Position numbers and translations under genes: made by a program
Shown: positions 20,283-42,184 of the stretch, in pieces
How positions within the stretch are numbered: the first letter of the stretch is position 1
How the letters are laid out: every line of letters begins with the position of its first letter
NCBI GenBank assembly: GCA_051531975.1
Contig: JAOPTT010000009.1
Span: 288,001-352,000, forward strand
DNA: 64,000 nucleotides
Direction: 5' to 3'
From: Spirochaetaceae bacterium
Lineage (GTDB): Bacteria > Spirochaetota > Spirochaetia > DSM-2461
Notes under the pieces: generated by a model
The model's database searches: none
Seen by the model: the letters and a program-made list of their open reading frames with translations, nothing else
Told to the model about the DNA's origin: nothing

Positions 20283-22419
<2,137 letters not shown>

Positions 22420-22425
22420 TAACAG

Positions 22426-22467
22426 ACCCTGCTTTTGCAGGGGTTATTTTTTTATAAGTATATTATT
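22426..22467 (+). repeat. Left direct repeat / terminator hairpin of the outer insertion
   Basis: 38/42 identical to 42892-42933; first 17 bp (accctgcttttgcaggg) identical. Confidence 0.85.
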
Positions 22468-22595
22468 TATTCAATTTCATATCTAATAATATCTTCCACT
22501 TTTGGAACTGTGTTGTATGTCTTCACCCAATTACCATTTTGTTTGACTTCATATATTTTAAAAACAAATGGTATTCCTTTTGCAATAATAGTGTT
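22467..22595 (-). pseudogene. Detached C-terminal 42 codons of the M23 peptidase whose N-terminal part is at 41485-42024
   Basis: Reads NTIIAKGIPFVFKIYEVKQNGNWVKTYNTVPKVEDIIRYEIE*; joins in frame to ...HLHMQFMNSD when the inner elements are removed. Confidence 0.8.
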
Positions 22596-22711
22596 GGAAG
22601 GTCTTATTTCATTATTATTTAAAGCTATCAACTTTAGTTTTAAATGGGCTTAAATAGTGAAAAATTCCATAAACAAAATCAGTCCCGTGTGTTAAATTTG
22701 GAGATATTGTT
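22596..22711 (+). repeat. Conserved non-coding element end R1
   Basis: About 10 differences in 117 aligned positions versus 24605-24721; first 21 bp identical. Confidence 0.95.
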
Positions 22712-22779: not shown

Positions 22780-23991
22780 TTATTTAACTTCAAATCTTAT
22801 ATTTTCTAGAAGAAAATCATATAGATTTATATGTGTGATACCATCTTTTGATAGATCAATTTTATCCATGGTAATCAAATATTTTGGATATTGATCATTT
22901 ATTTTTAGAAGTGCATTCATCTCCCTTGCATATGTTCTTTCATCTAAAGCCGTCAGACTAACCTGAAAATATAATCTTTTATCTCCTTTAATAGCAATAA
23001 AATCTACCTCGGATGACATGTTTTTCCCAACAGTTACTTCATAACCTAATCGAAGTAACTGAAGATATACAATATTTTCTATAACATGTCCTAAATTACC
23101 ACTGCGATATCCTATGAGCCTGTTTCTAAGACCTGTATCAACGACATAGTATTTACCATTAGTTTTAAGACGTTCTTTTCCCCTAATATCATATCTCTCA
23201 CATTGATAAAGCATATGGGCATCACACATTAACTGTAGATAATTATCTACTGTGTCTGAGGTGATTTTATGTCCATGAGATATCATTGTATTTTTGATTG
23301 CATTGGCAGATGTATTATTACCAATATTTTCAAAAACAAACTTTGCTACTTTATAGAAAGCTCCTTCATCTCGAATCCTACCTCTTAGAATAATATCTCT
23401 AGTAAATATTGAATCAAATAATCCTGAAAGAATTGCCTCTACCAGTTCCTGCCCATTAGCTAAACTAACAGCGGGAAAAGATCCTACTAGAAGATACTCG
23501 TTAAAATGCTTCTCAACATTTTGTTCACTATATGATTTAAATTCTAAAAACTCTTTAAATGATAAGGGCAGAACTTTAATCTCTATATACCTACCTGAAA
23601 GATATGTAAGATGCTCCCCTGAAAACATTCTTGAATTTGAGCCAGTAACATATATATCAGCATTAAAACTTACTCTTAAACTATTAATAACTTTCGCCCA
23701 ATCATAGAGCTCTTGTACTTCATCAATTAGTAAATAGATTCTACTACTATCTTTCACTTTACCTTTTATGTAGTCATGTATGGATTTCTCATCTTTTAAA
23801 TCATCATTTAGATATTTTTCATAATTTATTTCAATGATCTGGCTTTCTTCTACACTCTGATCTATAAGATATTCTTTAAACAGAACAAGTAGAGATGATT
23901 TCCCTGATCGTCTAACACCAGTTATCACTTTAACAAAATCATTATCTTTATACTGAACCAGTTTATCTGTATATCTTGATCTCTTAATCAT
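22780..23991 (-). CDS. AAA+ ATPase with C-terminal DUF4143/restriction-endonuclease-like domain
   Basis: GVRRSGKS, LIDEVQ, TGSNS, LSGR, KYYVVDTGLR, IENIVY, EVDF..YFQV. Confidence 0.9.
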   Translation of the reverse strand: MIKRSRYTDKLVQYKDNDFVKVITGVRRSGKSSLLVLFKEYLIDQSVEESQIIEINYEKYLNDDLKDEKSIHDYIKGKVKDSSRIYLLIDEVQELYDWAKVINSLRVSFNADIYVTGSNSRMFSGEHLTYLSGRYIEIKVLPLSFKEFLEFKSYSEQNVEKHFNEYLLVGSFPAVSLANGQELVEAILSGLFDSIFTRDIILRGRIRDEGAFYKVAKFVFENIGNNTSANAIKNTMISHGHKITSDTVDNYLQLMCDAHMLYQCERYDIRGKERLKTNGKYYVVDTGLRNRLIGYRSGNLGHVIENIVYLQLLRLGYEVTVGKNMSSEVDFIAIKGDKRLYFQVSLTALDERTYAREMNALLKINDQYPKYLITMDKIDLSKDGITHINLYDFLLENIRFEVK

Positions 23992-24246: not shown

Positions 24247-24598
24247 CTATACAGCTACGTCGATAACCTCTTCTTCTTTTACCACTACAGGAATTGGTTT
24301 AAACTCCACATGTTCAGCTACAACTTTTATCCTTGAATGAGGATTCTCAGATTCATCCACCCACCTGTCCTGTTTTAATCTTCCAACAACTCTAACACCT
24401 CTACCCTTGCAAAGATGTTTAAGGCAGCTCTCGGCTATTGTCGACCAAACTTCTATATCAAAGTAGGATACCTCTTTTACATAATCATCATCTTTCTTAT
24501 AACTTCTGTTAACAGCTATAGTAAAGTTACAGATAATAGTATCCTGGGGGGGTTCTTCTCTCTACAGGGTCTTTAACTAAATTTCCCTCTAACAACAT
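24247..24598 (-). pseudogene. ssb: Single-stranded DNA-binding protein, 5'-truncated and frameshifted (copy B)
   Basis: MLLEGNLVKDP...EVSYFDIEVW...KGRGVRVVGRLKQDRW...VAEHVEF; 352 nt versus 351 nt for copy A because of one extra base in a G7 run at 24546-24552. Confidence 0.92.
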
Positions 24599-24604
24599 AG
24601 AGTC

Positions 24605-24721
24605 GGAAGGTCTTATTTCATTATTTTTTAGAAGCTATCAAATTTAGTAAAAAATGGGCTTAAATAGTGAAAATTTCCATAAACAAAATCAGTCCCGTCT
24701 TTTTAATTTGGAGATATTGTT
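24605..24721 (+). repeat. Conserved non-coding element end R2
   Basis: Direct repeat of 22596-22711. Confidence 0.95.
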
Positions 24722-24973
24722 GCAATTTAAATATTATGCAATTGTCAGTCCCCAAACACTCCTACAAATAGTAGTTATTACAACATATTGATTATGAAAT
24801 ATTTTCATAAATAGATCTCCATATTATTTTTTATATATTAATTCAAAAAGGTGTATTTGATACGTCTGTACAGTTAGTAATATTTTACATTTTATTATTC
24901 CTGTTCCATATAATTAAAGAATCTATTGTGAATAACATATCATAAATATGTCCAGTAAACTGGTGGAATTCCG

Positions 24974-25866
24974 TTATATAAGTTTTTTCAACTCTTCTAT
25001 AGAAAAACCAGTGACTTTAGAAACAAAATCTAGTTCAGATCCTGCATTTAGAAGATTTCTAGCGATTTATTCCTTACCTTGATCTCTAGCATACTCCAAA
25101 GCTCACCTATCAGAAGCCACATCTTCTAAATATTTATTATATGCTCTCTGCTCTTTTGGAGTCATGGATATGTAGTCCAGCTTTTCACTCATCTCTTTTA
25201 TTCCCTTGGATTCAAATTCGTCCTCGACTCTGTGATTCTTTATGGAATAGATCCACTCATCTAAGGAGTCTTTTACCCTATTGTTAAAAATAGAGATGGA
25301 TATAACAAAGTACTCAGGAAAGATATTAATCTAATCTCTACTATTATTATAACCAACTAAGAAGTTACTGTCTATATTTATAGGTTCTCTACTGTGTAAT
25401 CTAGGCTGCATAGGCGAGCAGTAAACTTGTTTACGACCAGCTCAGAGAATTCTGTTTTACCATGATAGACATAATCTGAATGGGAATTACTACTTTTAGC
25501 TTCTACATCAAAATAGATTAGGCTTACAGAGTAGACTTTATTAACATAGGAATAATCCTCTCCAGATTTTATATTATCTGAAATATCCTTACTTGTTCCA
25601 AATAGTAACCTTTTAAAGTAGTTTTTTTCAGGAGCATACTGTATCTCTATTATCACATGTTCCCCTGAAGAGTTTTCTGCAATTAGATCTACCCTGTTAT
25701 ACTTAATATCCCGAGCATCCTGATTCCCCTCGCTCTCTAGAATATTAACAACTTTTATTTCTTCACCTAAAAGTGCTAATAAAAATCCTTCCAGTACTAC
25801 ATAGTTTACTTTATCCCTCAGGATATACTTTATTGCCCAATCAAAACTTACAATTTCTCTACTCAT
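24974..25866 (-). pseudogene. Rpn-family recombination-promoting nuclease / PD-(D/E)XK putative transposase, disrupted
   Basis: SFDWAIK, NRVD..IIEIQ; continues out of frame as NIFPEY..LDEWIY..IARNLL..VSKVTGFSIEEL with in-frame stops and frameshifts. Confidence 0.88.
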
Positions 25867-26059
25867 ACTAGGTTTATAGTGGTTCGTATCATATAAATTC
25901 AATTTAAAATCGATATATCTGGCTAAATTGATAACTAATTATATATCTTCAGAAAGCTGTATGTATGAAATTCAGTGCGTAATAATGGTTATTTGACTAA
26001 AGAACATTGGAATACTATTATACTGGATGGAACCCTGGAAGACGATCTTGTAAAAAGAC

Positions 26060-28489
26060 TTATTTAACGATTAACTCAATTTTTTTACCACAAAACACTA
26101 TTGTATTTTTAATTTTATTATTCATTACCACGTCTATTTTTATACTCATAGGCATTCCATTAAAGTCACCATTTCTATCATCAATTATTAAAGTACTACT
26201 TTTGTCATTCCATAAAATTCTGGTTATTGAATATCTATCTTTTTCATAATCATTACTCTTACCATCATCTTCATACATTAAAAATTCACCATCTGCATTT
26301 GGATAAATATGAATTTCATACCCTTCATTGGCCCTTTCATCTGCAAATTGGATTCCAGGTCTCATAGGAATTATTGATCCAGCTTTAATAAATATGGGCA
26401 TAACATCAATAGGTGTATCTACAACTAATTCGATTCCGCCTTTATAGTATTTATTTGTATAAAAATCATACCATCCACAACCTTCAGGAAGGTAGCAACT
26501 TATCTGCTTCTTAGTTGCTATTTCTACTCCACCAATGTCAAAATACATTGGTTTTGTTATTGGACAAACCATAATTGATTCACCCATCATAAATTGACTT
26601 TTTATAGTCCTGGCCTTTTCATCATGACTAAAATCAAATAGTAAGCTTCTCATTATGGTTTTATTAAAAAGTCTTACACTTCCGGCTATTGAATATATAT
26701 ATGGAATTAGTTTGTATCTGATATCTATGAATCTTTTAATAGAGTCATAAAACATATCTCCTTCCTCGCCAAAATTCCAAATTTCTCTTGGAGTATCAGT
26801 CCCGTGGGATCTAAACATAGGTAAAAAAGCACCCATTTGAATCCATCGCACATAAAGCTCACAATAGGCCGGATCGTCTATACCGTCTTCATAATCCCCT
26901 TTCCAAAACCAAAATTTATCAGAATTATCAGAACATTTACAACCTCTATTTCTCCAATTTTCTTTAACAACAAAGAAACCACCGATATCTAGAGTCCAAT
27001 ATGGATAACCTGAAAGTCCCATATTTAAACCTTCAACTATCTGTTTTTTCATGGTGTCATAGGTTGCAGTAATATCACCTGACCATAAAAAAGCTGAATA
27101 CTTTTGTGATGACGCATATCCGGAACGTGTTAGATTAACAACACGATTATTTTTAAAATCTTCAATTTGATTATTATATATACCCATTGAATGTACTAAT
27201 GGATATAAATTAGCCTGTTCACTTTTGAGATACTTTTTATGTTCTGTTCCAACAAGATAATATCTTTCCCGTGGCTTCCTTAATTGTGAACCGGTCCAGT
27301 CCGGACTACTAAATGGTTCTACAGAATCACACCACCATGAATCAAAACCTACATCGTATAACCCTTCTTTTGCCTGTTTCCAATATATTTTCCTAGCTTC
27401 TTTATCAAAAGCATCATACGTTGCATAATCAAATAATAGTTGGTCGTTTTTTATAAATTCATCATGATTTTCACAACCGGCGTTCATATTTGGCCAGATA
27501 GAAACCATGGTATGTGCATTCATTTTATGAATATTATCAATACACTCTTTTATATCCCCATAACGAGATTTATCAAGTATTTTATTCCCCCACTTACCAT
27601 CTTCCCAAGTATTCCAATCCTGTACTACACAATCTATAGGAACATTAAGCTCACGGTGTTTTGTAACAATATCTTCTAATTCTTTTGCAGAATAGTACTG
27701 TTCTTTTGATTGAATATAGCCAAAAACCCAACGTGGAAACATTGTAGCTTGACCTGTTAACTTTCTAAAACCATCAATTACATTATCTGGCTTTTCACCT
27801 GCAACAAAATAGTATTCCAAGTGTGGTATTGAATCACAAAACATATATGAATATGGTTTAGAATCATTAAAAATCATTAACGAGCCACAATCAAATAGCA
27901 TTCCATAGCCTGAATCAGATAAAAACATCGGCATTGGAATTCTCATATTATGTTGATATAAATACTGTGTTGTTCCTCTATAATTATATATACCCTCTTC
28001 ACCTTGTCCCAATCCATAAATACCCTCACCATCTTCAAACTCAAAATGAAGCTTTCCACTAAAAGCTTTATGTGTAATTTGTGGAATTAGGTTTCCTACA
28101 AAATTCCGTTCTCCATCTGGTGTTTTCACACGGTTTATAATTGGTTTATCACCGCCTGTGGAATATTCTAATATATCAATTTCATGTAATTCTCTCGATC
28201 CTTCTCTTAATAAACACTTACCATTTTCATCAAAATAACTAAGTTTTTTTGTATTCTTATTAAAAGAAACACTGAGTTCAGACATTTTAACAACAAGGTC
28301 AAATTCTGATTCAATAACATCAAAATCAACATTTATAAAACTATTATGATCAATAATTATGGATTCAGATTCACCAACTCTTTTTTTACTATATATAATT
28401 CGTATAATTTTTTTATTAACAGGTTGAACTTTTAAAATACCATGTTTCAAATAAATTGAAACTCCATTTTTTTCAACTTTATAATTCAT
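26060..28489 (-). CDS. GH31 glycoside hydrolase (alpha-xylosidase-like)
   Basis: YGLGQ, VVQDW, nucleophile region WWCDSVEP, WSGD, DIGGF, FRSHGTD. Confidence 0.92.
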   Translation of the reverse strand: MNYKVEKNGVSIYLKHGILKVQPVNKKIIRIIYSKKRVGESESIIIDHNSFINVDFDVIESEFDLVVKMSELSVSFNKNTKKLSYFDENGKCLLREGSRELHEIDILEYSTGGDKPIINRVKTPDGERNFVGNLIPQITHKAFSGKLHFEFEDGEGIYGLGQGEEGIYNYRGTTQYLYQHNMRIPMPMFLSDSGYGMLFDCGSLMIFNDSKPYSYMFCDSIPHLEYYFVAGEKPDNVIDGFRKLTGQATMFPRWVFGYIQSKEQYYSAKELEDIVTKHRELNVPIDCVVQDWNTWEDGKWGNKILDKSRYGDIKECIDNIHKMNAHTMVSIWPNMNAGCENHDEFIKNDQLLFDYATYDAFDKEARKIYWKQAKEGLYDVGFDSWWCDSVEPFSSPDWTGSQLRKPRERYYLVGTEHKKYLKSEQANLYPLVHSMGIYNNQIEDFKNNRVVNLTRSGYASSQKYSAFLWSGDITATYDTMKKQIVEGLNMGLSGYPYWTLDIGGFFVVKENWRNRGCKCSDNSDKFWFWKGDYEDGIDDPAYCELYVRWIQMGAFLPMFRSHGTDTPREIWNFGEEGDMFYDSIKRFIDIRYKLIPYIYSIAGSVRLFNKTIMRSLLFDFSHDEKARTIKSQFMMGESIMVCPITKPMYFDIGGVEIATKKQISCYLPEGCGWYDFYTNKYYKGGIELVVDTPIDVMPIFIKAGSIIPMRPGIQFADERANEGYEIHIYPNADGEFLMYEDDGKSNDYEKDRYSITRILWNDKSSTLIIDDRNGDFNGMPMSIKIDVVMNNKIKNTIVFCGKKIELIVK

Positions 28490-28536
28490 ATAATTAATCC
28501 CTTAATAACGACCTTATTCTTAATAATTAGTCTGTT

Positions 28537-28940
28537 TTATAAATCTTTCAAATATGGACTTCGATCTTCAACCAAAGTGAGCAAATTACTGACCTCTGAC
28601 CAACAGCTCCCATTGAACACACCACCAACACTACTTAATGTTTCCCAGGAGTATACCGGTCTTTCATCTGTAGACATATACTGGCTGATAGTCGAAGAAA
28701 TTTCCTTATACAGTTCAAGATACAAGACCTGCATCAACAAGGGCAGCGCTTGTTGATCCACCGACTCTAATATTTCCAGTTCCGGTATCTACAAACTGTC
28801 CGATTTGACCATACCGGCTGAATATATCTACAAACTCATCGACGCATTTTTTAGCTCCATAAATTCAAAATGTTTGAAGTGGGTAATAAAAACTAGAAAC
28901 TGCTTTTATATAAGGCTACAAGGTTAATTCCCAGTGACAT
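28537..28940 (-). pseudogene. Multiply deleted paralogue of the 33180-34964 gene
   Basis: Colinear blocks matching ~33200-33299, ~33400-33481 and ~33900-34032; probable RBS and ATG at 28940. Confidence 0.85.
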
Positions 28941-28959
28941 TATTTTCCTTATATAACCT

Positions 28960-30219
28960 CTATTTATCCCCGTTGAATTCTTTTACAGCATCTATAGCTG
29001 CAACAATGTTTTCAAGTGGGGTCTTTGCCTGTATATTATGTATGGCATTAAACACATAACCACCTTCTTTAGCAAATATTTCACATCTCTCCAGAACCTG
29101 GGTTCTAACCTGTTCAGGGGTTCCAAAAGGGAGAATGTTTTGTGTATCAACACCACCGCCCCAGAACACTACATCCTTTCCAAATTCACCTTTTAAAGCA
29201 TTTGCATCCATTCCTGTTGCAGACAGTTGTACGGGATTTAATATATCAAAGCCACTATCAATTAGATCCGGAACAAAAGATGCAATTGCCCCACAGCAGT
29301 GCTTAAAGGTTTTCCAGTTTGTATTGGCATGTATCCAGTCATTAATCTTTTTATAATGTGGTTTCCATAACTCCCTATATGTATCTATAGAACAGAATGT
29401 TCCATTTTGAGTTCCAAAATCTGTTCCACATACAAAAAATGCATCGATTTTATCACCAATTGCATTGTGAATCTTTTCGTAGTTTTTAATTCCAATTTCA
29501 GTCTGTTTTTCAAATAGTTCATAGATATATTCCGGTCTTAATGCTGTAGACATATACCACTCGGTTATATCCCTTATGCCTTTAGGGTTTTTTAACTGGG
29601 GTGCCGGCACACAGGCTATATCCCCCAATGATGTACCGGAGAAATTCCCAATTACACCTTTTCCTGTTGCAGAGGCTCTATCAGCTTCATTAATTAAAAA
29701 TTGTAAATCCTTATCACTTATAGGGCCGAACTCTTCAAGATTATCCTGAACATTCAGATTATCCTCATCAATTGGTTCCTGCCTGATTATCTCATCAAAA
29801 AAATGTCCACTTTTAGGCATTCTTCCACTTGGTCTGGCTGTTAAATCCCCCTGGGGATATAAAAGAGTATCCCCTTTATCATCTATTGTATAATTAAAAT
29901 CTTTTGAAACCAAAACTTTTAACCCATCATTCATAGTCCACTCTTTCCATGCTGTATTTGGAAAACCGAACCATGTATTTCTGGAATTTACTGCTGTAAC
30001 ATCAACACCTATAGCTTCCTGAAGATCCTCTTCCACTAATCCCAAACATTGATAAGGTTCGTAAACTTTTACAAGTTTTTTTTCCAGGCCATAATAATCC
30101 CTTAATTCTGCAACTATACTGGCATGAATACCTGTTACGGCAGTTCCTCCAAAGTCTATTGGAACTTTATCCGGTTGTTTATGGTTAAGACACGCTTGTA
30201 ATCTCTCTTTTGAATTCAC
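28960..30219 (-). CDS. Uroporphyrinogen decarboxylase/MtaA-CmuA superfamily protein
   Basis: GTDFGTQ, HCCG, LNPVQ, FWGGGVDTQ..PFGTPEQV, AIHNIQ. Confidence 0.88.
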   Translation of the reverse strand: MNSKERLQACLNHKQPDKVPIDFGGTAVTGIHASIVAELRDYYGLEKKLVKVYEPYQCLGLVEEDLQEAIGVDVTAVNSRNTWFGFPNTAWKEWTMNDGLKVLVSKDFNYTIDDKGDTLLYPQGDLTARPSGRMPKSGHFFDEIIRQEPIDEDNLNVQDNLEEFGPISDKDLQFLINEADRASATGKGVIGNFSGTSLGDIACVPAPQLKNPKGIRDITEWYMSTALRPEYIYELFEKQTEIGIKNYEKIHNAIGDKIDAFFVCGTDFGTQNGTFCSIDTYRELWKPHYKKINDWIHANTNWKTFKHCCGAIASFVPDLIDSGFDILNPVQLSATGMDANALKGEFGKDVVFWGGGVDTQNILPFGTPEQVRTQVLERCEIFAKEGGYVFNAIHNIQAKTPLENIVAAIDAVKEFNGDK

Positions 30220-30276
30220 TTTAATCTCCTTCTTATATTGTTAACATTTTGAAGTCACATCTATATTCTGCAGTCT

Positions 30277-33168
30277 TTACAACTTTCTCCTATAAGCTTC
30301 TATTTTACTTATTGAAAATCTTTCTAAACCAAATGCGAATGTCTGAACAATTCCAAAATACCTTATCTCAGATAAGGGGACATTAATAGTATTAACACCT
30401 TCATGGCCTTTTTGTGAGACTACCGGTCCAATCCATTTTCCGTTTTCGCTCGATATATATACCTCGTATTCTTTCGGGAAACCTTCATTGCAAACAAATA
30501 TTATCTCGTCAATCAAACTATCCGATCCAATATCAGTTACCAGCCACTGCCCCGGTAATTGATAACCATTAAATTCCCACGTTGTATCATCAAGTCCATC
30601 AACTGCTAAAGAAGGTATTCCTGCAATATGAGGATTTGTATGGTTATCTAAAGCTGTAAAACCAGAAGTCACCAGCCATTTATTCCGGGTAAAATTTTTG
30701 TTACCCAAATCAAAATGCTCATTTACAACTGTATTTGTTTGGAAATTTGTATTATATATTTCAAGGTTATTTATAGCCCACCATAATGAAGTTTCATCAG
30801 CTGTAATTACAAATTTAATATACCTCATAAACACTTTGGGAAAGCTGACTTCATATTTACCATTATTAAAATTTACTTCAATTAGTAATTTCCCCCATTT
30901 TATTTTATCTTCAGAAACATAAATGTCGAACTTCCCGGGATAGTTTTTGTCGCAATACAGCTCAAGTCTATTAAATGATTGACTGCACCCCATATCTGCC
31001 AAAAACCACTGGCCGGAAAGCTGAGGTTTACCTGAAGTCCATCTGGTATAGGAATTCCCATCAATTGTATTTTTAGCAATATTTTTATACCAACTGTCAA
31101 ATGCTTCAAATTTCCACTCTTTCGGATTTAACATACCCAGTTTTAATTCACTTTTACTGAATGGAAAATCATCTTTAAGTCCAATAGAGTCTACTGGTAT
31201 ATCTGTAAATCCTGATTCATAGGCAGGAGAATTTTCACTCAACTTAAAATCTCCATTCTCTGTATTTACAAATAATGGATCACTAATCAATGAATTATTA
31301 TCAAAACCAGTTGTCTTATTCCAATCATTCAGATTAGTAACATCTTCAATTCTGGAGAATTTGTAGTTATTATTGCTATTATAAAATATATTATCATCTG
31401 ATTCTTTTATATTTTCATAGGAACAATTTGCAAAATCATAGATCGTGTCACCTGAATTATAAATAATGTTATTTTTGATTGTTACCAAATCTAATTCCAT
31501 CAAACTGAATGCTTGATGCGTGAGGTTGTTTACCATAACATTATTTTGTATTACGTTATTAGTACCTTTTATACACATACAGCATGCATTGTTTATATTG
31601 TATAAAATATTATTCGTAACGCTAAAATAACTAGCACCATCATCGAGATATATACCTAATCCAGTTCCCATTGGTGTACCACTATCGTGAACTAAATTAT
31701 TATGTATAATATTTCCTTTCCCTGCAGCCCAGGCTTCAATAGGTCCAGAGTCCTGTGAATCCTTATTTGCCCCGGATACATCATTAAAAGCAATATAGTT
31801 ATCTCTTGAATGAATAAAATCCCAATGATTTTCCCAAGTGACTGGAATATCTTCAATATACTTTCCTTCCATCCTGTTATACTGTAATCCCTTTAAGGAA
31901 ATGCAATATCTTGGAAAGTCATAAACTCTATTATTAGTGATTATATTATTACCACTTTGATTTATTTGAATTCCAGAACCATGTCCAACGGTTTTTCCAC
32001 CACTTCTAATGAGATTATTTGAAATGATATTTTCTTTGTTCACATCAATTGTACCAATATTATGGCCAAGTAAATATATACAATTGTAACCAGTATCTTC
32101 TATTAAACTTCCATAAATCGTATTATTCTGCGCGTAATTATTAAAGATAACACCACAATAGCCACCATTGCTAATTCTACAAAATCTAAAAACATTGTTA
32201 TAGGCATTCTCTAAGCTGATGACCCCTAATCTGTTTTCCTCAAGCTCATAGGCTTCAAAGTACACACCTCTATGTTCTATTGGATTTCTATGTTCTCTTC
32301 CAGAATCAGTTATAGTAAATGTAATACCTTCGAACTCTATATTTTCAACTAAATTGCAGCTGCTGCTACCCTTTAACTTTATGATTTCTTTTATAGTAGG
32401 AGCAATAATTTCTTGATTTTCTAACGAGTTATTACGTGACCAGTAGTAGAGATATCCTGTCTTACGATCAAGGTAAAATTCTCCAGGAGAATCCAGGAAT
32501 TCATAAGCACCCTGCAAGAAATACCTAGCACCTTTATTCATTGGATACCGGGTTTCATTCTTAAAAGTAATAACACTATTATTCCAGTCAATATCATCAA
32601 TAATATGTGTTTCACTAAACCAGTTCCAATCAGCATCACCAGGCCACATATAAATTGTTGCATTACTGTAATCAAATTGATTAATTTCCATTAAATCAAA
32701 CACAATTTTCTTTTGCTGCTCATCTTCTACTTTATCGGTTACTCGCAGATATCCTTCATTTGGAATCCTTGCAAGAGTTTGTCTTTCGCCATTTTCAAAA
32801 AGAGAATTAAATCGTAAATCTCCAACATAAGCTTTTTTAATTGGTCCGGAATGTTCTTCCCAATTATCTATCAACCTTCCACCAATTAGCTCAGGTTGTT
32901 CTCCTGTAAAATTCTTATATTTGATTTTATAGCCATTCTTACCTGAATCTTCTTCATCAAATATAATTGTATTTTCAAGATAGTACTTCCCACCTCTAAT
33001 AAACACATCTCTATCGTATTCCATACCATTAATAGTTTGCCGTCTTATTACTTCTTTCGCTCTATTTATTGAGGCAAAAGGCATGTCCTGTGTACCGGGA
33101 TGCAAGTCATTTCCTGTCGTAGAAACGTAATACTCTTTTTTTAATTTGTCTGCTTGTTCCAAAAACAT
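30277..33168 (-). CDS. Right-handed beta-helix carbohydrate enzyme (GH141-like) with two C-terminal discoidin/CBM32-like domains
   Basis: YYVSTTGND..PFASI, LDSPGEFYLD, GIYLDDG, Asn-rich coils; IDGN..TRW and VDGL..TTW motifs; no signal peptide seen. Confidence 0.75.
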   Translation of the reverse strand: MFLEQADKLKKEYYVSTTGNDLHPGTQDMPFASINRAKEVIRRQTINGMEYDRDVFIRGGKYYLENTIIFDEEDSGKNGYKIKYKNFTGEQPELIGGRLIDNWEEHSGPIKKAYVGDLRFNSLFENGERQTLARIPNEGYLRVTDKVEDEQQKKIVFDLMEINQFDYSNATIYMWPGDADWNWFSETHIIDDIDWNNSVITFKNETRYPMNKGARYFLQGAYEFLDSPGEFYLDRKTGYLYYWSRNNSLENQEIIAPTIKEIIKLKGSSSCNLVENIEFEGITFTITDSGREHRNPIEHRGVYFEAYELEENRLGVISLENAYNNVFRFCRISNGGYCGVIFNNYAQNNTIYGSLIEDTGYNCIYLLGHNIGTIDVNKENIISNNLIRSGGKTVGHGSGIQINQSGNNIITNNRVYDFPRYCISLKGLQYNRMEGKYIEDIPVTWENHWDFIHSRDNYIAFNDVSGANKDSQDSGPIEAWAAGKGNIIHNNLVHDSGTPMGTGLGIYLDDGASYFSVTNNILYNINNACCMCIKGTNNVIQNNVMVNNLTHQAFSLMELDLVTIKNNIIYNSGDTIYDFANCSYENIKESDDNIFYNSNNNYKFSRIEDVTNLNDWNKTTGFDNNSLISDPLFVNTENGDFKLSENSPAYESGFTDIPVDSIGLKDDFPFSKSELKLGMLNPKEWKFEAFDSWYKNIAKNTIDGNSYTRWTSGKPQLSGQWFLADMGCSQSFNRLELYCDKNYPGKFDIYVSEDKIKWGKLLIEVNFNNGKYEVSFPKVFMRYIKFVITADETSLWWAINNLEIYNTNFQTNTVVNEHFDLGNKNFTRNKWLVTSGFTALDNHTNPHIAGIPSLAVDGLDDTTWEFNGYQLPGQWLVTDIGSDSLIDEIIFVCNEGFPKEYEVYISSENGKWIGPVVSQKGHEGVNTINVPLSEIRYFGIVQTFAFGLERFSISKIEAYRRKL

Positions 33169-33179
33169 ATAAATTCCCT

Positions 33180-34964
33180 TTACAACTGACTGTCAATATT
33201 TCTATGTGGATTTCTATTTTCAGCCAAAGTAAGCATATTACTGACCTCTGCCCAACAACTTCCATTGAACACACCACCAACACACCTTGATGTTTCCCAA
33301 TCAGATAAGTTGACACGTTCACATATAAATCCCTGGGGTAATTTCTCTCTGGGTACTTTTATACCGCTACTTCCATGAACGGTAGCGTCTTTGGGCACAT
33401 CCCATGAGTAAATAGGTCTCTCATCTGTGGACATATACTGGCTGATAGTCGAAGAAATTTCCTTATACAGTTCAAAATACATTTCCTCTCCAGTGAATTC
33501 ATACAACTTAATGAGACTGTCACCTGACAAAGTACATATACCTGGTGCAGAGTGTTTATTTTGCACATTGGCAAACACAGAACCGGTGCTTTTCATATCA
33601 AGCCTGATAAATTCAGAACCTTCAGGAAATTTATAGTTATAAGTAACCACCCAACTGCTGCAAAGATGTGCTGCACTCTGTGCATAAGATAACCATTTTG
33701 CTTCTCCTGTTACATCATATAATTCAACATAACTCTCCAACAATGCAAAGGCGCTTTCACTATCAGGACACTGAAGTATCTCAGCAGGACCACCTGTTGT
33801 AAAACCTTTGGACAAGTATGTTGTATAATAGCCATCTGCAACTAATTTTGCAGTCTCCAGATACTTTTCATCACCAAAGTATTGATAGGCACTAGCGAGG
33901 CCTGCACCAACCAGGGCACCGCTTGTTGATCCTCCGACTCTAATCTCTCCCGTTTCCACATCAACATACTGTCCAATTTGACCATACCGATTAAAAACAT
34001 CTACAAACGCGTCGGCGCATTTTCTTGCACCTTCAATGAATGCATCAGGAATCTCTTCCATAATACTGAAGTGTTTAAAAAGGAAATAAAGTACATCGGC
34101 AGATCGTCTAGTCAGAGTAAATCCATCCGTACCTTCAACACCAAACCCATCGTGAACCACCGAACCATCTTCCGTTGTATTTGCGTAGAAAAAACCACTT
34201 TTACCCTGATTCTCGAAAACATGTTCCAAGGTTTTTATACCTCTTTCATATTCAAGTTTCCCACCTAATTTCATCATTGCATAACTGGATATTGCACCTC
34301 CAGTCCAGCCACTTTGCCATGATAACAGTGTCGAACCTGGAACATCAACTCCGTAAAATCCTTTTTCCTCATACCAGTTCATGGTATTATACTTATCAAG
34401 TTGAATTCTGATCTGTTCATTTCTCGGAAGAACATTAGGTAGTTCATCATCTAATCCCATAAGCTTTCTATTCTTGAAAAATATAGCAAAGAACTCCACT
34501 ATTGAATGACACTCTTCATTTATGACTTTATAGGGTATTTCCGCTTCTTTATCATGCCATTCATCATTATTTACAACCATCTTAGGCCAGACATACTTGT
34601 ACTTTCTCATAGCTGGGTAACTTAGTTGTATGCAGCCTTTTTCATAGGCTATACCTAGATTTTCTCCATCTATTTCCTGTACTGTAAAAACAAACAAACA
34701 TCTGTTATTGGACGGAGTCCATATACCAACGCAAGGTACTGAGACATCCCCTGTGGTCACTTCTATTACCCCACTTCCATCCATATTCAACCTTGGAACA
34801 TCTGTAATAAATGCAGGCATTACAATTTTTTGCTCATCCTGGTTGTACATTGGTGGATAGTTTTTCTTTAATGCTTCAAATTTATTACCATTATAACAAC
34901 ATGCAGGAAATAAAACATATTCATTGCTGTCGTACTCTTCGACATCTATTTTCACTATACTCAA
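33180..34964 (-). CDS. Uncharacterised protein, probable (alpha/alpha)-barrel carbohydrate-active enzyme
   Basis: Repeated 'L..AY..GDEKYL..A' and 'LYDVTGEAKWL' helical-hairpin motifs; operonic with the ABC importer. Confidence 0.6.
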   Translation of the reverse strand: MSIVKIDVEEYDSNEYVLFPACCYNGNKFEALKKNYPPMYNQDEQKIVMPAFITDVPRLNMDGSGVIEVTTGDVSVPCVGIWTPSNNRCLFVFTVQEIDGENLGIAYEKGCIQLSYPAMRKYKYVWPKMVVNNDEWHDKEAEIPYKVINEECHSIVEFFAIFFKNRKLMGLDDELPNVLPRNEQIRIQLDKYNTMNWYEEKGFYGVDVPGSTLLSWQSGWTGGAISSYAMMKLGGKLEYERGIKTLEHVFENQGKSGFFYANTTEDGSVVHDGFGVEGTDGFTLTRRSADVLYFLFKHFSIMEEIPDAFIEGARKCADAFVDVFNRYGQIGQYVDVETGEIRVGGSTSGALVGAGLASAYQYFGDEKYLETAKLVADGYYTTYLSKGFTTGGPAEILQCPDSESAFALLESYVELYDVTGEAKWLSYAQSAAHLCSSWVVTYNYKFPEGSEFIRLDMKSTGSVFANVQNKHSAPGICTLSGDSLIKLYEFTGEEMYFELYKEISSTISQYMSTDERPIYSWDVPKDATVHGSSGIKVPREKLPQGFICERVNLSDWETSRCVGGVFNGSCWAEVSNMLTLAENRNPHRNIDSQL

Positions 34965-35037
34965 GTTATTCTTCCTTTATTGATATAACTGAAATAATTC
35001 TTAAAAGAGGTTTCCCTCTTTTAAGGCTGTTAATTAC

Positions 35038-36573
35038 TTAATTTGAATAGAATGCATCGATCTGCTGCTGTGCCTCTTTTACAATAGCATCACCACCTGA
35101 TTTTCTAATTTTATCCAGAAACGTTTTTAATTCCGCTTCAGTATTCTCCAGGAAAATACCACACTCAAAAGCTGCGGAATATTCATCTATAATTGTACTT
35201 ACTGCGGACATTTCTGCTTTGACCGGATTTGAATCAAATGTAAATCCCAAAACAGAAGATGGGGTTGCAGAATCATTAAGTTCAGCTATAGCAGGACGCG
35301 TAAGTTTAGATTCGCCTTCCATTAAGTATGATTCCATATTTCCCGGTCCATATACCCATCTAACATCCGGATTATATCTATCAGTACCAACTTGAGTTTT
35401 TACAATAGTATTATCTCCAGCCATATTGTAATGAACACCTTCTATACCATAATTGATCAGGTTAAGAAAATCCTTATCACTGTAAAGAAGTTCAAAAAAC
35501 TGAATTGCTTTTTCAGGGTTTTTAGACGTCCGACTGATAGCAGTCAATGTTGCTGTTGATGAACTAGTCATAATAGTAGGATTATTAGGAGCTTTAAACA
35601 TCTCACTGTAGGTTCGGCTACCGTTGGATTCTGCAAGCGTAAGAGAGCCAGGGTGAGGATAGAAATTCCCATCCAACATCATTCCCACTTTACCTAAACC
35701 ATATAAATCACCTATGCCTGGCAATGCTATGGCATCTTCTTGTATATATCCTTTTTGCGCCCAATCAGCCATTAATAATACATAGTTCCTGAACTCATCG
35801 GATTTAAACTGATTCACTACTGTTCTAGTGTTATCTGCCAGTCTTACATAACCTGGAGCAGTCCTGCCTACAACATCATCAAATCCATTTGTCACCAACA
35901 ATTTATTCCAGTTAGCAAATCCAGGTTCACCACCGGCAGCTCCCCAGGCATAAACTTCCGGGTATTCACTTTTTACAAACTCAAGATAAGGTTCAAAATC
36001 TTTCAGACTACTGATTTTATTTATGTCAAAATCAATCTTTTCTATAGCTTTATCCATAATAGAAGCTGGAGCTCTCCACGCATTGGCCATATAGTTCATC
36101 TGCCAATTTAACATTCCATAAGTTTTCCCTTTAATTTTTGCTACATTTCTAAATTTCTGAGGTACAGTATCCGCGTATGCAGGTGCATATTTAGAAATTA
36201 AATCGTCTAGAGGTAAAAAAGCCCCTTTATCAACGTTTCCAGAGTAACTATTAGACCAGTTTCCAGTCCATGCCAAATCGTAAGGTTCTCCCGAAGCTGT
36301 AACCACCTGCATTTTTTGATCATAATCTCCCCATCCAATGTGAACAATTTTAAGCGTAGCTCCGATTTTTTCAGATAGAATAGAATTAATTTTATCCTCT
36401 ACAAGTCCCTGATCCAACTGCTCTCCGGGACCAATATGGTAGTACACCAATTCTACTAAATCGTCTTTTGTACTCTCAGTTTCACCACTAGCCCAACCCA
36501 TTGCCGGTAATAACAGAATTAATAACACTGCCAATACCATTTTGAAATTCATTCCTTCTTTGTTTTTAATCAC
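35038..36573 (-). CDS. Oligosaccharide ABC transporter substrate-binding protein (LplA/DUF3502-like)
   Basis: Signal peptide, SGEPYDL, NYGIEGVHY, LGFTFD; GGAGG RBS before GTG 36573. Confidence 0.9.
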   Translation of the reverse strand: MIKNKEGMNFKMVLAVLLILLLPAMGWASGETESTKDDLVELVYYHIGPGEQLDQGLVEDKINSILSEKIGATLKIVHIGWGDYDQKMQVVTASGEPYDLAWTGNWSNSYSGNVDKGAFLPLDDLISKYAPAYADTVPQKFRNVAKIKGKTYGMLNWQMNYMANAWRAPASIMDKAIEKIDFDINKISSLKDFEPYLEFVKSEYPEVYAWGAAGGEPGFANWNKLLVTNGFDDVVGRTAPGYVRLADNTRTVVNQFKSDEFRNYVLLMADWAQKGYIQEDAIALPGIGDLYGLGKVGMMLDGNFYPHPGSLTLAESNGSRTYSEMFKAPNNPTIMTSSSTATLTAISRTSKNPEKAIQFFELLYSDKDFLNLINYGIEGVHYNMAGDNTIVKTQVGTDRYNPDVRWVYGPGNMESYLMEGESKLTRPAIAELNDSATPSSVLGFTFDSNPVKAEMSAVSTIIDEYSAAFECGIFLENTEAELKTFLDKIRKSGGDAIVKEAQQQIDAFYSN

Positions 36574-36624
36574 AAAGTCCTCCAAATTAAATTATATTTT
36601 AACAGATTTTTACAAAATCTGTTA

Positions 36625-37539
36625 TTATCCTTTTACCGAGCCCATAGTTAATCCTTTAACAAAATATTTTTGAAAAAATGGAAATATAACTAACATAGGA
36701 GCCACTGCAGTAAGGCACATTGCCATACGGGCAGATTCTGTTGGGATACTGTCTGCTGATACAGAAGCACCCATCATGATCATTTTTTTAAGCGCATCAA
36801 TATTTGCCAACATACTTTGCAGCATGTGGGGTAACGTTATTAACATCCGGTCATCTATAAAGAGCATTCCAGTCCACCAGGTATCATTCCAGTATCGTAA
36901 AACCTGAAATAGTCCCAATGTTGCTATTGCAGGCTTGGAAAGAGGAATTACAAGAGAAAACAGTATTCTTATTTCCGATGCACCATCAATGTAAGCGGAT
37001 TCGGAAAGTTCCTTTGGTATCTGCTGAAAGAAGGTTTTTATAAGTAAGATATTAAATGCTTGAAGAGCATATGGAATGATATGCGCCCATATTGTATTTT
37101 TTAAATGCAGATAATTTACCATCAACATATATGTAGGTACTAATCCTCCGTTAAACAGCATTGTAAAGAATACAAAAAAAGAGAAAAAACGCCGGTATCG
37201 AAATGTAGGTAGGGATAGTGGATAAGCTATAAGTATGGATAGTATTAGGGAGATTACAGTACCTAAAACTGTTACAACCATAGAAACTATATAACTATCA
37301 ATTATCCGCTCTGGTGATTTAAATATATAACTAAAGGCTTCTAAATTAAATTGTCTTGGTATTATCTTATAGCCATGTTCATATATATAAGAATCTGATG
37401 AAAATGAGATTGAAATAACAGCTATTAACGGAATTATACATAACAGTGATATAGCTAGAAGTACTATATTCACAATCATCCTTGATAATGGTGATATACT
37501 ATTTAGTTTTCTTTTTTGGTTTACTTTAAAATAACGCAC
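36625..37539 (-). CDS. Carbohydrate ABC permease (LplC-like)
   Basis: FNGGLVPTY, ESAYIDGAS (EAA loop), FQKYFVKGLT. Confidence 0.93.
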   Translation of the reverse strand: MRYFKVNQKRKLNSISPLSRMIVNIVLLAISLLCIIPLIAVISISFSSDSYIYEHGYKIIPRQFNLEAFSYIFKSPERIIDSYIVSMVVTVLGTVISLILSILIAYPLSLPTFRYRRFFSFFVFFTMLFNGGLVPTYMLMVNYLHLKNTIWAHIIPYALQAFNILLIKTFFQQIPKELSESAYIDGASEIRILFSLVIPLSKPAIATLGLFQVLRYWNDTWWTGMLFIDDRMLITLPHMLQSMLANIDALKKMIMMGASVSADSIPTESARMAMCLTAVAPMLVIFPFFQKYFVKGLTMGSVKG

Positions 37540-38443
37540 TGTCTTTCTCCCATTTATTAACTACACCATTAGCTATCAGAATCGTTATAAGTCCGACAAT
37601 AGACTGATATAAACCAGCAGCTGTTGCCATTCCTAAATCTCCGGTAACTTTTAAAGAACGATAAACATATGTGTCCATGACATCAGTCGTCTTATACAAT
37701 ATTCCAAGATTTCTGGGCACATTATAGAAAAGACCAAAGTCAGCATAAAATATGCGGCCAATACTGAGTAAAACCATAATAGTAATAAGAGGGCGTATGT
37801 GTGGTAAAGAGATGTATATTGTTTGCTTCCATCGACCTACACCATCAATTGCAGCAGCTTCATAAAGTTGTTTGTCTACCGATATAAGTCCGGCGTAAAA
37901 GATAATGCACCAGTAGCCTATGTTTTTCCAGGTATTAAAAAAGATAAGAATCATTGGCCAGGATTTTGGATTTGTGTACCAGTTTACAGAATCGATATTA
38001 AAAAACAGTAATAACTGATTTAAAATTCCATAACGGGAACTTAAAAAACTATAAGCCATATAACTGACAACTACCCATGAGATATAGTATGGAAGAAACA
38101 AAGCTGTCTGATAAAATTTAATTGCTTTTTTACTAATTACTTCATTTAGTAATAAAGCCAGTGCCACACCACCTACTGTATTGCATATAATAAACAAAAC
38201 ATTATATCCAATAGTGTTTCGGGTAATTCTTAAGGCTGTATCTGTTTTGAAAAAGAATTCAAAGTTTTTGAATCCTACCCAGGGGCTTTTCAAAAATCCC
38301 AGATCGTAACGAAAATCCTTAAATGCCAGAAAAATACCAGCCATTGGTAGATAGTTATATACCAACATAACTGTGAATGGAATAATAAGGATTAAGAGTA
38401 ATTGTTTGTCTTGGGCTCTCCCAATTAGTTTTTTCTTATTCAT
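37526..38443 (-). CDS. Carbohydrate ABC permease (LplB-like)
   Basis: SPWVGFKNF, YEAAAIDG, DVMDTYVY. Confidence 0.93.
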   Translation of the reverse strand: MNKKKLIGRAQDKQLLLILIIPFTVMLVYNYLPMAGIFLAFKDFRYDLGFLKSPWVGFKNFEFFFKTDTALRITRNTIGYNVLFIICNTVGGVALALLLNEVISKKAIKFYQTALFLPYYISWVVVSYMAYSFLSSRYGILNQLLLFFNIDSVNWYTNPKSWPMILIFFNTWKNIGYWCIIFYAGLISVDKQLYEAAAIDGVGRWKQTIYISLPHIRPLITIMVLLSIGRIFYADFGLFYNVPRNLGILYKTTDVMDTYVYRSLKVTGDLGMATAAGLYQSIVGLITILIANGVVNKWEKDSALF

Positions 38444-38609
38444 GTAATAATTGTATGGCTGGCAAACTTAAACGGACAAGAGCCAAAATGCAGTGTTTTA
38501 TGTCAAAAAACTCATAATGTAAAAGTTTAAAAGTATCAAAAAGCAAAGATGCAGGATAATAATTAAAGATTCTCTTTGCCTGCAGTATTTCTTGATCTAT
38601 GATTAAAAT

Positions 38610-40892
38610 ATGCCTGTAAGAAATCAAAGTTATATGTTTAAACTCTTTTTCTCATTTGTGAGTCTAGTGACATTTATAGTACTTGTTAATTCTATTACTC
38701 AACTATTTCTATCAATAACAGAAGCAGAAAAAATAATGCATAATGCTGAACAACATAAAATGGAATTGATAAGTTACAGTGTTGACTATATGAATCAATC
38801 CACCAGGACTCTTATTCAAAATATGTTTTCAGATAATAATGTAAAGTTTTTACTGTCAACCAATGACCATGATTATTTAAAAGTACATAATTTTTTCAAG
38901 AATACTAAAAAAATTATAGCCAGCAGCCCCGAAGTACATTCTATATATCTATATAACTCAGTTCTTGATAACTACTATTCTACAACAAAGGATTTTTCCA
39001 GTACATCTGAAGATTTTTTTGATGAAGAAATTAATACATATATGAATCCTGGGAACACAATATTTTTAAAACCAATTTTCCGCAGACTCGCTGGTGGATT
39101 AGAAGTTTACTCATACATTTTATATGTTGATGTTTTTGAAAATATTAAATCCAGTGCAATTATTATAAATATTAAAGCTGATTATATAAAAAATATTATA
39201 GGTGGAATGCACTCAACCCTCTCATTAAATACTAAAATAATAATGACTAATAAAGAAGGTTATTTAATGGGGCCTGGAGAGAAATTGGAAGATATCACAT
39301 TTATAAAAAGGATTTTGGAAAGTAATAAAAAAAAGTCATACTTTATTGACACTTATCAGAATAAAAAAACATTAATAAGTTATATTTTAAAAGAAGATAC
39401 GGAATGGTTTTTTATATCACTGACCCCCTATAAGAGCATCACCGACTCTTTTAAAGTATTAAAAGTATTAATTTCACTTTCAGGGTTATTAATCCTTATT
39501 ATTGGTACTTTTTTTTCTGCACTTCTGGCAAAAAAGTTATATCTTCCATTAAAGGTTATTACAGAAACAGTAAGTGCTATAACTGGAAAAAATAGGTCAG
39601 GAAAAGATGAATTCACTTTAATAAAAGAGACCCTATCCGATTCTACAGCAAGGGCTGCACTTTTTGATTCATATAAACAAAAAAATAGCCAAACTCTTCA
39701 GACAGAGCTAATGAGAAAGCTTTTGAATCATACTGTGTCTGTTTCCGATGAAGTTATTAAGAAATGGGATGATTTAGAAATAGAGCTTGATTCCGAAAAA
39801 CCTTTTCATTTAATTCTAATTAATATAGATGATTTTTATGATCTTTCTTATAAACTAAGTTTTAATGATATGAACCTGTTATGGTTTTCTATAAATTCCC
39901 GATTTAGACAGGATCTAAGTTTCGATTTTAAATCACTATTTGTAAATATGAATGAAAGAGTATCCTGTATTATCGTCCAGAACAATAGTGAACCAAATAA
40001 CGGTGTTGAGGTTAAGTTAAGAAAGTTCCTCTCACTAATTCAAAATAAAATTTCAGAGGAGTTAGGTGTATCCATTACCATTACTATTTCAGATATTGGT
40101 CAAAGTTTATTATCACTGCCAAAGCTTTATTCTGAAACTTTGAATATGGCTGAATATCGATTATTAATAGGGCAGGGAAGCATAATAGAAAAAAAAGATA
40201 AAACTTTACAGACAACAGGATATCGTTTCCCTATTGAAGAGATACATAATTTAAATAAATTTATAAAAAACAGAGACTTTATTAATGCAAAAAAATCATA
40301 TTTATATATTGAAGAGAAATTAATAAATAATGAACCTTTTCAAATCCGTGTCGATTTAATACGTGTGATATCTTCTCTGTTTGATACAATTAAAACTTTG
40401 GAAATAAACAGCATTCTGGAATTTAATCTGGATTTCCCACAATTTATTGATGACTTAAACCGTCTGGATACAATGGGTCAAATTAGAAGCCTGTTTAATA
40501 ACTTTTTTGATAATATTGAGAATAAGTTTAATATTATTAAATTATCTAAAGTGGATGAGAATGTTGAAAAGATAAAAAAAATAATTGAACATGAATATTC
40601 AGATAAAGAGTTATCTACAAAAAGCATAGCTGACAAATTAAACATGTCTACCGGGTATATACGTCAACTATTTAAAGAATTTATGGGTGTTTCTATTTCA
40701 GAATATATTTTCTCAATAAGATTAGAAAAATCAGCAGAACTTATATCTATGCATAAACAATCATTTAAAGATGCAATGTACAGTGTTGGAGGGGATAATT
40801 ACCGGTATTTCTTAAGACGTTTTAAGGAGTATTTCGGACTGACTCCTAATGAATATCTTAAAAAAAATAATCAGGAATTTGTAGATAGATGA
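38610..40892 (+). CDS. Membrane-anchored AraC-family regulator (YesS-like)
   Basis: Two TM segments around a sensor domain, C-terminal AraC HTH; divergent from the ABC operon. Confidence 0.85.
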   Translation: MPVRNQSYMFKLFFSFVSLVTFIVLVNSITQLFLSITEAEKIMHNAEQHKMELISYSVDYMNQSTRTLIQNMFSDNNVKFLLSTNDHDYLKVHNFFKNTKKIIASSPEVHSIYLYNSVLDNYYSTTKDFSSTSEDFFDEEINTYMNPGNTIFLKPIFRRLAGGLEVYSYILYVDVFENIKSSAIIINIKADYIKNIIGGMHSTLSLNTKIIMTNKEGYLMGPGEKLEDITFIKRILESNKKKSYFIDTYQNKKTLISYILKEDTEWFFISLTPYKSITDSFKVLKVLISLSGLLILIIGTFFSALLAKKLYLPLKVITETVSAITGKNRSGKDEFTLIKETLSDSTARAALFDSYKQKNSQTLQTELMRKLLNHTVSVSDEVIKKWDDLEIELDSEKPFHLILINIDDFYDLSYKLSFNDMNLLWFSINSRFRQDLSFDFKSLFVNMNERVSCIIVQNNSEPNNGVEVKLRKFLSLIQNKISEELGVSITITISDIGQSLLSLPKLYSETLNMAEYRLLIGQGSIIEKKDKTLQTTGYRFPIEEIHNLNKFIKNRDFINAKKSYLYIEEKLINNEPFQIRVDLIRVISSLFDTIKTLEINSILEFNLDFPQFIDDLNRLDTMGQIRSLFNNFFDNIENKFNIIKLSKVDENVEKIKKIIEHEYSDKELSTKSIADKLNMSTGYIRQLFKEFMGVSISEYIFSIRLEKSAELISMHKQSFKDAMYSVGGDNYRYFLRRFKEYFGLTPNEYLKKNNQEFVDR

Positions 40893-41087
40893 ATCTCCGA
40901 ACTGACAATAAATTACCGCCAAAAAATATTTCAGTAATTTCATATTCTTTTAACATACCGATTCTGTATGTATGCTACTTCTAAAATCATTGCTTAATCT
41001 AATCGAGTTCACTCTCTCTTATCTCATCAACAGGAATTAAATTATTGCAAAGATTGTACTAATCTGACAAGAAAATCAGACTTGAAA

Positions 41088-41119
41088 TTGATAATCCCTT
41101 ACATATAAGGAATTATCAA
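41088..41119 (-). terminator. Hairpin downstream of ssb copy A
   Basis: ttgataatccctta-cata-taaggaattatcaa. Confidence 0.75.
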
Positions 41120-41127
41120 TTTAAAAA

Positions 41128-41478
41128 TTATACTGCTACGTCGAGAACCTCTTCCTCTTTTACAGTATTTGCTAAGGTTTTAAACTCCACATGTTCCGTA
41201 ACTACTTTTATCCTAGAGTGTGGATTCTCGATTTCATCTACCCACCTATCCTGTTTAAGCCTTCCAACAACTCTAAACCCTCTACCCTTACAAAGATGTT
41301 TAAGACAACTTTCAGCTATTGTGGACCAGACTTCTATATTAAAGTAGGATACCTCTTTTACATAATAATCATCTTTTTTATAACTTCTGTTAAAAGCAAT
41401 TGTGAAATTACAGATAATTGTATCCTGGGGAGTTCTTCTCTCTACAGGGTCTTTAACTAAATTTCCCTCTAACAACAT
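41128..41478 (-). pseudogene. ssb: Single-stranded DNA-binding protein, 5'-truncated (copy A), in frame with the upstream M23 fragment
   Basis: OB-fold SSB motifs; about 50 differences in 351 nt versus copy B; no RBS of its own. Confidence 0.85.
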
Positions 41479-42024: not shown

Positions 42025-42184
42025 ATTTATACCTATATCCTTTTCATCTGATAATACTTTACTATATTTAAGATCTCTGCAGTAAGAACACAGTATTTCG
42101 TAGTTTGTTGAGTTTTTTGTCATTGTACACTTGTATTAGAAAACACGTTAACTTCATTACTTTATAAACAAGAGAGGAACAAAT

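Follow-up and report, generated by a model that had tools for sequence, protein, structure and literature searches.

Tandem recombinase-less islands in a spirochaete peptidase gene probably target codon 7 of a short ssb gene and carry its replacement

Why should two copies of an ssb gene, both lacking their first codons, be found inside a peptidase gene of a marine spirochaete, and which gene is the proper target of the element that brought them there? The window considered here is the whole stretch of 64,000 nt that was analysed (positions 288,001 to 352,000 of contig JAOPTT010000009.1, Spirochaetaceae bacterium, assembly GCA_051531975.1); the genome is 98.5% complete and consists of 29 contigs. 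Along the minus strand, the 5' part of an M23 peptidase gene (42123–41479) is followed by unit A (41478–24599, 16.9 kb), unit B (24598–22590, 2.0 kb) and the last 40 codons of M23, both units being stacked inside this gene. Each unit starts with a short ssb paralogue minus six codons (in the following ssb'), followed by a hairpin, and ends with a non-coding arm, R. We consider it probable that these are islands without a recombinase, bounded by ssb' and R, that their preferred site of insertion is an AT dinucleotide within codon 7 of the short ssb gene, and that the interrupted gene is rebuilt from the carried copy of 116 codons.

The left flank, M23 positions 41479–42123 (minus strand), is a secondary target and is joined in frame to the ssb' of unit A (41128–41478, minus strand; codons 7 to end, 116 aa), the left end or P' arm of the element. 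The AT crossover dinucleotide of this attL-like junction lies at 41477–41478. The hairpin 3' of ssb' (41080–41127, minus strand) is common to all three units of the genome, the third of which is described below. The cargo of unit A (25378–40892) is a sugar-use cluster with an Rpn/PD-(D/E)XK fragment, GH31, URO-D-like, beta-helix/F5-F8 and GH127-like genes, a sugar ABC transporter and an AraC regulator. Its right end, the P arm R1 (24599–24921, minus strand), has about 125 bp in common with R2 and about 320 bp with the copy on contig C1. At the middle junction, with AT at 24597–24598, R1 meets the ssb' of unit B (24247–24598, minus strand) in an attP-like sequence. This second ssb' is in frame for only 16–17 codons, owing to an apparent +1 frameshift where seven G stand in a row (24546–24552). 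The only gene of unit B encodes an AAA_14/DUF4143 ATPase (22780–23991, minus strand). Unit B is closed by R2 (22588–22711, minus strand), which terminates in the AT core (22588–22589, attR-like) and is followed by the displaced M23 3' part of about 40 codons (22467–22587, minus strand), matched by 116 of 119 M23 homologues.

In a preliminary description of this DNA both ssb copies were said to begin abruptly. They do start at the same ssb base, and the codons for D-S precede the middle copy, but the left copy (from 41478) is fused in frame to M23 and the middle copy (from 24598) is the one frameshifted at the G run. The fusion is an ORF of 331 aa with PF01551 at 152–213 and PF00436 at 214–314, and is the sole longer ssb relative found in the homologue comparison. 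The block nearest the junction (24552–24599 = 41432–41479) is identical over exactly 48 bp, as reported, and beyond it 50 of 305 bases differ, again in line with the earlier count of about 50. R supplies no in-frame start, although its first in-frame stop is 13 codons out rather than 11; likewise, the identical block of 21 bp in R exists, but it begins at a distance of 8 bp from the core, and two bases on the junction side of it differ. That about six ssb codons are missing also holds, since the native paralogue and those of three congeners all start with M-N-S-L-N-S.

A search of the genome with an R profile found exactly three copies. The third belongs to another unit with ssb' and R at its ends (C1:220323–218155, 2.2 kb), which lies antisense within a CAAX-protease gene and carries a HicAB-like pair, named from the sequence; a stop and a frameshift interrupt its ssb'. 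When AT is counted once, the frame of both target genes is restored and, in M23, the six-residue spacing of the homologues across the break is recovered. This AT dinucleotide is the only sequence common to all five of five junctions; there is no longer duplication. We conclude that the M23/ssb' boundary is genuinely that of a mobile element. Of the two units, B was probably the first to enter M23, and A would then have gone into the M23/ssb' junction made by B. In the circular form R would be joined to ssb', as seen at the middle junction; among the joints listed for contigs of four runs, which drop rare variants, no att-site joint of a circle or an excision is present. Runs with small word shares are left out of this evidence.

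Two other kinds of element were considered for this locus. An insertion sequence or composite transposon was rejected, as the ends lack a transposase and nothing longer than AT is duplicated; an integron cassette array or CALIN platform was rejected as well, as the internal repeats have weak folds and correspond to the end of a protein gene on C5, not to attC. These pieces (24915–24972 and 25990–26065) are short, match the final part of a 120-aa gene on C5 (66614–66976) and are repeated in the C1 unit and on C5. A non-coding module of about 100–190 bp (40890–41078) has six copies in the genome, including one in the C1 unit, three on C6 and one on C2, and some of these are near transposase remnants. 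Furthermore, a terminator-like hairpin present in duplicate (22418–22467 and 42884–42933, 86%) brackets the M23 gene together with a gene for a 200-aa membrane protein, between nifU and purA, which suggests that the M23 target gene is itself an earlier insertion.

The M23 site had been said to match the ssb side of the crossover at 13 of 22 positions. The match is 10/22, a value at chance level which about 6% of AT sites reach, and the real signal lies upstream of the crossover instead. At –18 to –12 from the core the sequence ATGAATA is present in both secondary targets and in native ssb, where this is the position of the start codon. In that register it occurs at 325 of 1,230,830 genomic AT sites (2.6e-4). 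The motif of the M23 site even extends to nine bases: this B-arm mimic, ATGAATAGT at –18 to –10 (within 41479–41496, minus strand), is in the register of the native ssb start codon, and the same 9-mer is found in this register at 9 of 1.23 million AT sites. The left arm of M23 matches four native ssb 5' ends at 11–12 of 18 positions. In a ranking by a profile which was built solely from these four 5' ends, with the targets excluded, the left arms of the M23 and CAAX targets fall within the highest 0.15% and 0.23% of sites, with a joint value of about 3.5e-6; the right arms do not stand out in the same ranking (3.4% and 22.5%). Because the element does not contain the ssb 5' end, the likeness of its targets to that end is independent evidence, and the ranking of the left arms appears to be the strongest support for ssb codon 7 as the likely primary attB. 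As both secondary targets have ATGAATA at the register of the native start, ssb codon 7 is likely the true attB. Thus, the two earlier suggestions that the crossover lies inside codon 7 and that M23 is a secondary site gain support from the common register of the start motif in the M23 and CAAX targets and from a third unit with the same ends. Taken as a claim of its own, the use of ssb codon 7 as primary target with replacement of the 3' part seems to us likely.

The short ssb is a second paralogue in addition to a longer ssb (C6:571194), and close matches to it exist in 293 of 401 genomes of the class. The native copy of this genome (C2:331975–331589) is intact, has no island and shows CT at the core position. 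Having CT in place of AT would block a serine recombinase with a 2-bp core, and the units may have gone to look-alike sites for that reason. This immunity argument is weakened by a further complete ssb copy (C6:632906–633268) on a tmRNA-integrated element (ICE), which has the full start motif and the AT core and yet is empty. Among 33 close homologues (P0001–P0034) position 7 is Ile in 14, Val in 12, Leu in 5 and Met in 2; with Leu or Val in 17 of the 33, about half would be without the AT core.

On insertion into a native ssb, ssb' would be fused to the promoter, RBS and first six codons of the host gene, which would give an intact gene marked by Met7. The idea of a replacement 3' gene, already part of the preliminary description, is supported by purifying selection on ssb', by nearest relatives which are full-length with Met7, and by relics at the native ssb of a congener. 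In the dN/dS comparison the three ssb' copies have pairwise values of 0.02–0.07, with dS of 0.55–0.68. Such a ratio at a dS of about 0.6 means that the copies diverged as functional genes and broke only recently; off target, ssb' would decay, as with the frameshift in B and the stop and frameshift on C1. An extra conservation of the junction-proximal part, which had also been noted, is significant over the first 15 codons for the A-B pair (Fisher p=0.017), but not in comparisons with the C1 copy (p=0.17–0.18); the junction-proximal half of ssb' is the less diverged one. As to a native start at MLLEGN, the two best of 120 listed homologues (87% and 83%; P0001 and P0002) are full-length proteins with Met7; of 117 proteins scorable at this position, 3 have Met. 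A tree from which residue 7 was omitted groups this pair beside the three units, with weak support (0.32). Two further public proteins, P0243 and P0244, begin at the same Met as ssb', with starts that may be gene-caller choices, and one of them has the C-terminus of unit B. A full-length query gave 202 matches across the class, and within the best 150 of them truncated copies occur only in this genome. Scans for loci related to ssb returned three viral and five genome loci, and the two viral and two genus loci inspected have full-length starts.

A different reading takes ssb' as a vestigial arm, captured once via aberrant excision, of an element that is promiscuous in its sites and does not restore ssb. 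The selection values just given stand against it, as the copies diverged like working genes and their frame breaks are recent; so do the full-length Met7 relatives and the fact that the targets still track an ssb 5' sequence which is absent from the element. For it speak the occupied sites of this genome, which are all non-ssb genes, and that an R-ended island at ssb was found nowhere. Further support comes from the congener G001, the DNA of whose ssb is hardly nearer to ssb' (77–79% identity) than other host ssb of its kind are to each other (74–77%). On balance we hold the vestigial-arm reading to be unlikely and return to target repair, for which the same congener is instructive.

The native ssb of G001 has Met7 (its protein is listed under Thiospirochaeta perfilievii). 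Behind it follow a spacer of the element type, an ATPase, a RimK/GNAT pair and then the conserved downstream gene. This ATPase is 94% identical in amino acids and 91% in nucleotides to that of unit B; the neighbouring host genes of the two genomes are 43–94% identical, most of them 60–83%. The RimK/GNAT pair is absent from the genome studied here, and the G001 ssb locus contains neither R nor a displaced ssb 3' part. The locus is best read as the decayed relic of an island, which is not proof. An insertion of the ATPase without R could also be explained by homologous recombination through ssb', for instance in natural transformation, combined with chance illegitimate junctions and no dedicated recombinase, and the lower divergence of the junction-proximal ssb' half would fit as well. 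Such a process cannot yield base-exact AT junctions in two genes without extended homology and is contradicted for the junctions in the window, which makes it a very improbable source of the units. Just upstream of the G001 ssb, a toxin-antitoxin-like pair lies between an outer-membrane gene and its terminator (L002, G001:C1:2644746–2645302).

The preliminary description had asked for an intact ssb followed by an island ending in R and would have taken its absence from all relatives as a refutation. None was found, neither in the three existing congeners, a thin sample in which two genomes are 71–81% complete, nor through R, which is in none of 400 other genomes. BLAST with R in 60 relatives was negative, and an R pattern gave nine matches with 1–2 mismatches in 400 genomes outside the present one (G000), equal to the nine for a backwards control and hence at chance level. 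There was no real match among 102 pattern hits in metagenomes nor among at least 120 in viral sequences, and R was not found in plasmids and phages.

Elements which repair the gene they enter are known. Those in icd, e14 and phage 21, carry a copy of the 3' end of the target and displace the native one. In islands of this type the replaced part is a short tail and the enzymes are tyrosine integrases, whereas the units in the window would replace about 95% of the gene. Tandem stacks of units without recombinase, as in the window, are familiar from SCCmec and pseudo-SCC. Islands with a dusA-associated integrase also bring a replacement on insertion, according to the available portion of their description, but they supply a short 5' end, have repeats of about 21 bp and encode the integrase (PMC4482086). 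By this comparison the window units differ in that they bring 116 of 122 codons as a long 3' part and leave promoter and start to the host. With regard to ssb itself, insertion into ssbB is described for prophage phiB6 of Streptococcus mitis B6, which thereby disrupts the gene (PMC2828477), and a review mentions prophages of S. pneumoniae that insert into ssbB as well (PMC12378983). From what these texts contain, prophages of the phiB6 type share with our units an attachment site near the 5' end of a short second ssb paralogue, but phiB6 has prophage genes, its own integrase and a 9-bp core and disrupts its target, whereas the window units have a 2-bp core, neither phage genes nor integrase, and a near-complete replacement gene. 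The note on the TIGER resource (PMC12424338) names no target genes, and ssb is not mentioned in the available part of PMC12884075. At the level of titles and abstracts, no spirochaete ssb islands and no near-whole-gene replacement were found; catalogues of att sites may already list ssb. Targeting of the ssb 5' end is therefore already known from the streptococcal precedent, while replacement of nearly the whole gene was not found in print.

Which enzyme could have made these junctions? No recombinase is present in any of the three units. PF07508, the domain of large serine recombinases (LSR), is found in none of the four genomes of the genus and in 3 of 38 genomes of the family. Nor are there R-like flanks at 20 tyrosine and 8 serine recombinase loci. 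For the same reason we rejected as the enzyme the tyrosine recombinases of the genome (two Xer-like ones by context in relatives, an integron integrase and the integrase of a tmRNA island) and its two small serine recombinases of 196 aa. The latter are part of a group of small serine recombinases of 196–198 aa in accessory regions (G000:C1:52969–53559, C10:276604–277194, C1:59134–59310 and L163 in G001:C2). A conserved arm of about 140 bp precedes each of them, and copies of this arm without the gene exist (C3:106569–106700, C3:111458–111516 and C10:282915–282971).

In the sites themselves, R and ssb' show partial dyad symmetry about AT, which amounts to 8 of 12 positions for R2 (p about 0.003) and 6 of 12 for R1 and R3 (about 0.05). 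In the B arm the last base of the start motif is at position 19, and in R the motif returns with its end at position 24 (five identical bases; 0.2% of sites); the shifted motif is confined to the left arms, the right arms being without it. For serine integrases of the A118/LI type the available part of one study gives the zinc-domain motif at 11–19 in attB and 16–24 in attP, i.e. a shift of 5 bp (PMC3783163). Measured against this account, the units of the window resemble the att systems of large serine integrases in their 2-bp crossover and may do so in an imperfectly pseudo-palindromic site and a 5-bp motif shift, the last in left arms only; they deviate in that no LSR was found in the genome and the shifted motif is one-sided. 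Core, partial dyad and left-arm shift together point to a serine recombinase. A large serine recombinase may have been supplied in trans, or its gene may since have been deleted just upstream of R; we regard a serine recombinase acting in trans as more probable than not.

That serine recombinases do use the 5' end of this gene in spirochaetes follows from the junctions of a second family of islands, in another spirochaete family (f13), which came to light when 13 genomes having at least two ssb matches were screened. In one of these, G332, a displaced ssb copy lies 20.8 kb behind the intact one, and an AAA_14 ATPase follows ssb. The f13 islands occur in nine genomes of four genera (G332, G498, G482, G473, G342, G439, G048, G429 and G459). 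Their recombinase is a Resolvase+Recombinase protein (336 aa in G498) which lacks a Pfam zinc-ribbon match; its gene sits just upstream of an R-like arm and ends about 175 bp before the core. The core is GA in codon 10 of the short ssb, and tandem stacks form at the gene 5' end. Thirty loci were fetched for the recombinase and 16 junctions found in them: eight continue into the host ssb 3' part (8 genomes, 4 genera), seven into the left arm of the element itself (tandem stacks) and one into a short ssb-like stretch; G473 is the ninth genome with such a junction. Left junctions that cut ssb after nine codons were seen in G498, G488 and G332. The f13 islands split ssb and add no more than a few 5' codons in frame; their arm terminates in frame, with codons which mimic the lost strand. 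The loci of this family (L426 at G498:C2:2684000–2703999, L427, L428, L429, L430 and L361–L363) offer intact recombinases of 336 aa as well as exact att sites. Sister clades of the recombinase (45–62% identity) are followed by radC-like 3' parts (L432, L434, L435, L436, L437 and L376, from translations), and one recombinase clade hence covers two target genes of the DNA-repair or competence type. These ssb-splitting islands are apparently undescribed in print. In G488 (L430) and G332 (L361) the split copy is preceded by an extra intact ssb whose upstream sequence is the same or similar, which is possibly a repair by duplication.

The f13 islands share with the units of the window the 5' end of a short ssb paralogue as target, the tandem stacks and a long conserved arm before a 2-bp core; they differ in their GA core in codon 10 and in having their own LSR, where the window units have AT in codon 7 and none. 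The islands of G332 were accordingly rejected as members of the window family, on account of the crossover at codon 10. A profile comparison of the f13 ssb arm with R gave no match either way, but the arms of the sister radC clades likewise fail against the f13 ssb arm, and the f13 LSR as query gave no match in the four genomes of the genus. By core and arm sequence, the island family of f13 is distinct from that of the window. As the f13 LSR ends upstream of its arm, we also dropped the notion that R contains the RBS of a deleted inward-facing integrase.

The f13 arms bear as well on the possibility that target and replacement are as proposed while the reaction is carried out by a tyrosine integrase of relaxed overlap homology, R holding its arm-type sites. 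R is conserved over 125–320 bp, beyond a minimal serine att half-site, but the arms of the f13 LSR family are equally long and conserved. Bases –6 to –3 of R vary, each R resembling its own target at 3–4 of 6 positions, and congeners have many tyrosine recombinases. No likeness to R exists near the 20 tyrosine-recombinase loci, no repeated arm-type motifs were found in R, and the crossover is at the dyad centre in both independent targets. A tyrosine enzyme seems improbable to us on these grounds, and a serine recombinase remains our preferred choice.

These islands add a protein-gene attachment site to those of spirochaetes and would take target repair to an extreme, with nearly the whole gene on the island and only promoter and six codons left to the host. 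They also indicate that the primary target of an island without recombinase may be read from its off-target sites. The f13 side finding is directly testable, with an intact 336-aa serine recombinase and base-exact attB and attP. Both bear on the question why mobile elements choose genes of DNA uptake and recombination (ssbB, radC, comM). As a speculation that goes well beyond the rest and is doubtful, the short ssb may be a transformation gene whose 5' end is contested by two independent families of serine-recombinase islands, of which one splits the gene at codon 10 and the other ships 95% of it and swaps the host allele. Hosts would escape through a change of the codon-7 core, and the islands would be diverted elsewhere and leave chimeric ORFs such as M23-SSB.

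Some further second copies of ssb were noticed. Two are truncated at the 5' end, cut at about codons 12 and 28 (L153 in G024:C210 and L155 in G028:C141), and match neither island family. At a native locus in another genome (L364, G272:C127:24734–30831), two complete ssb lie 5.6 kb apart, and genes for transposase and toxin-antitoxin occupy the space between them and the region behind.
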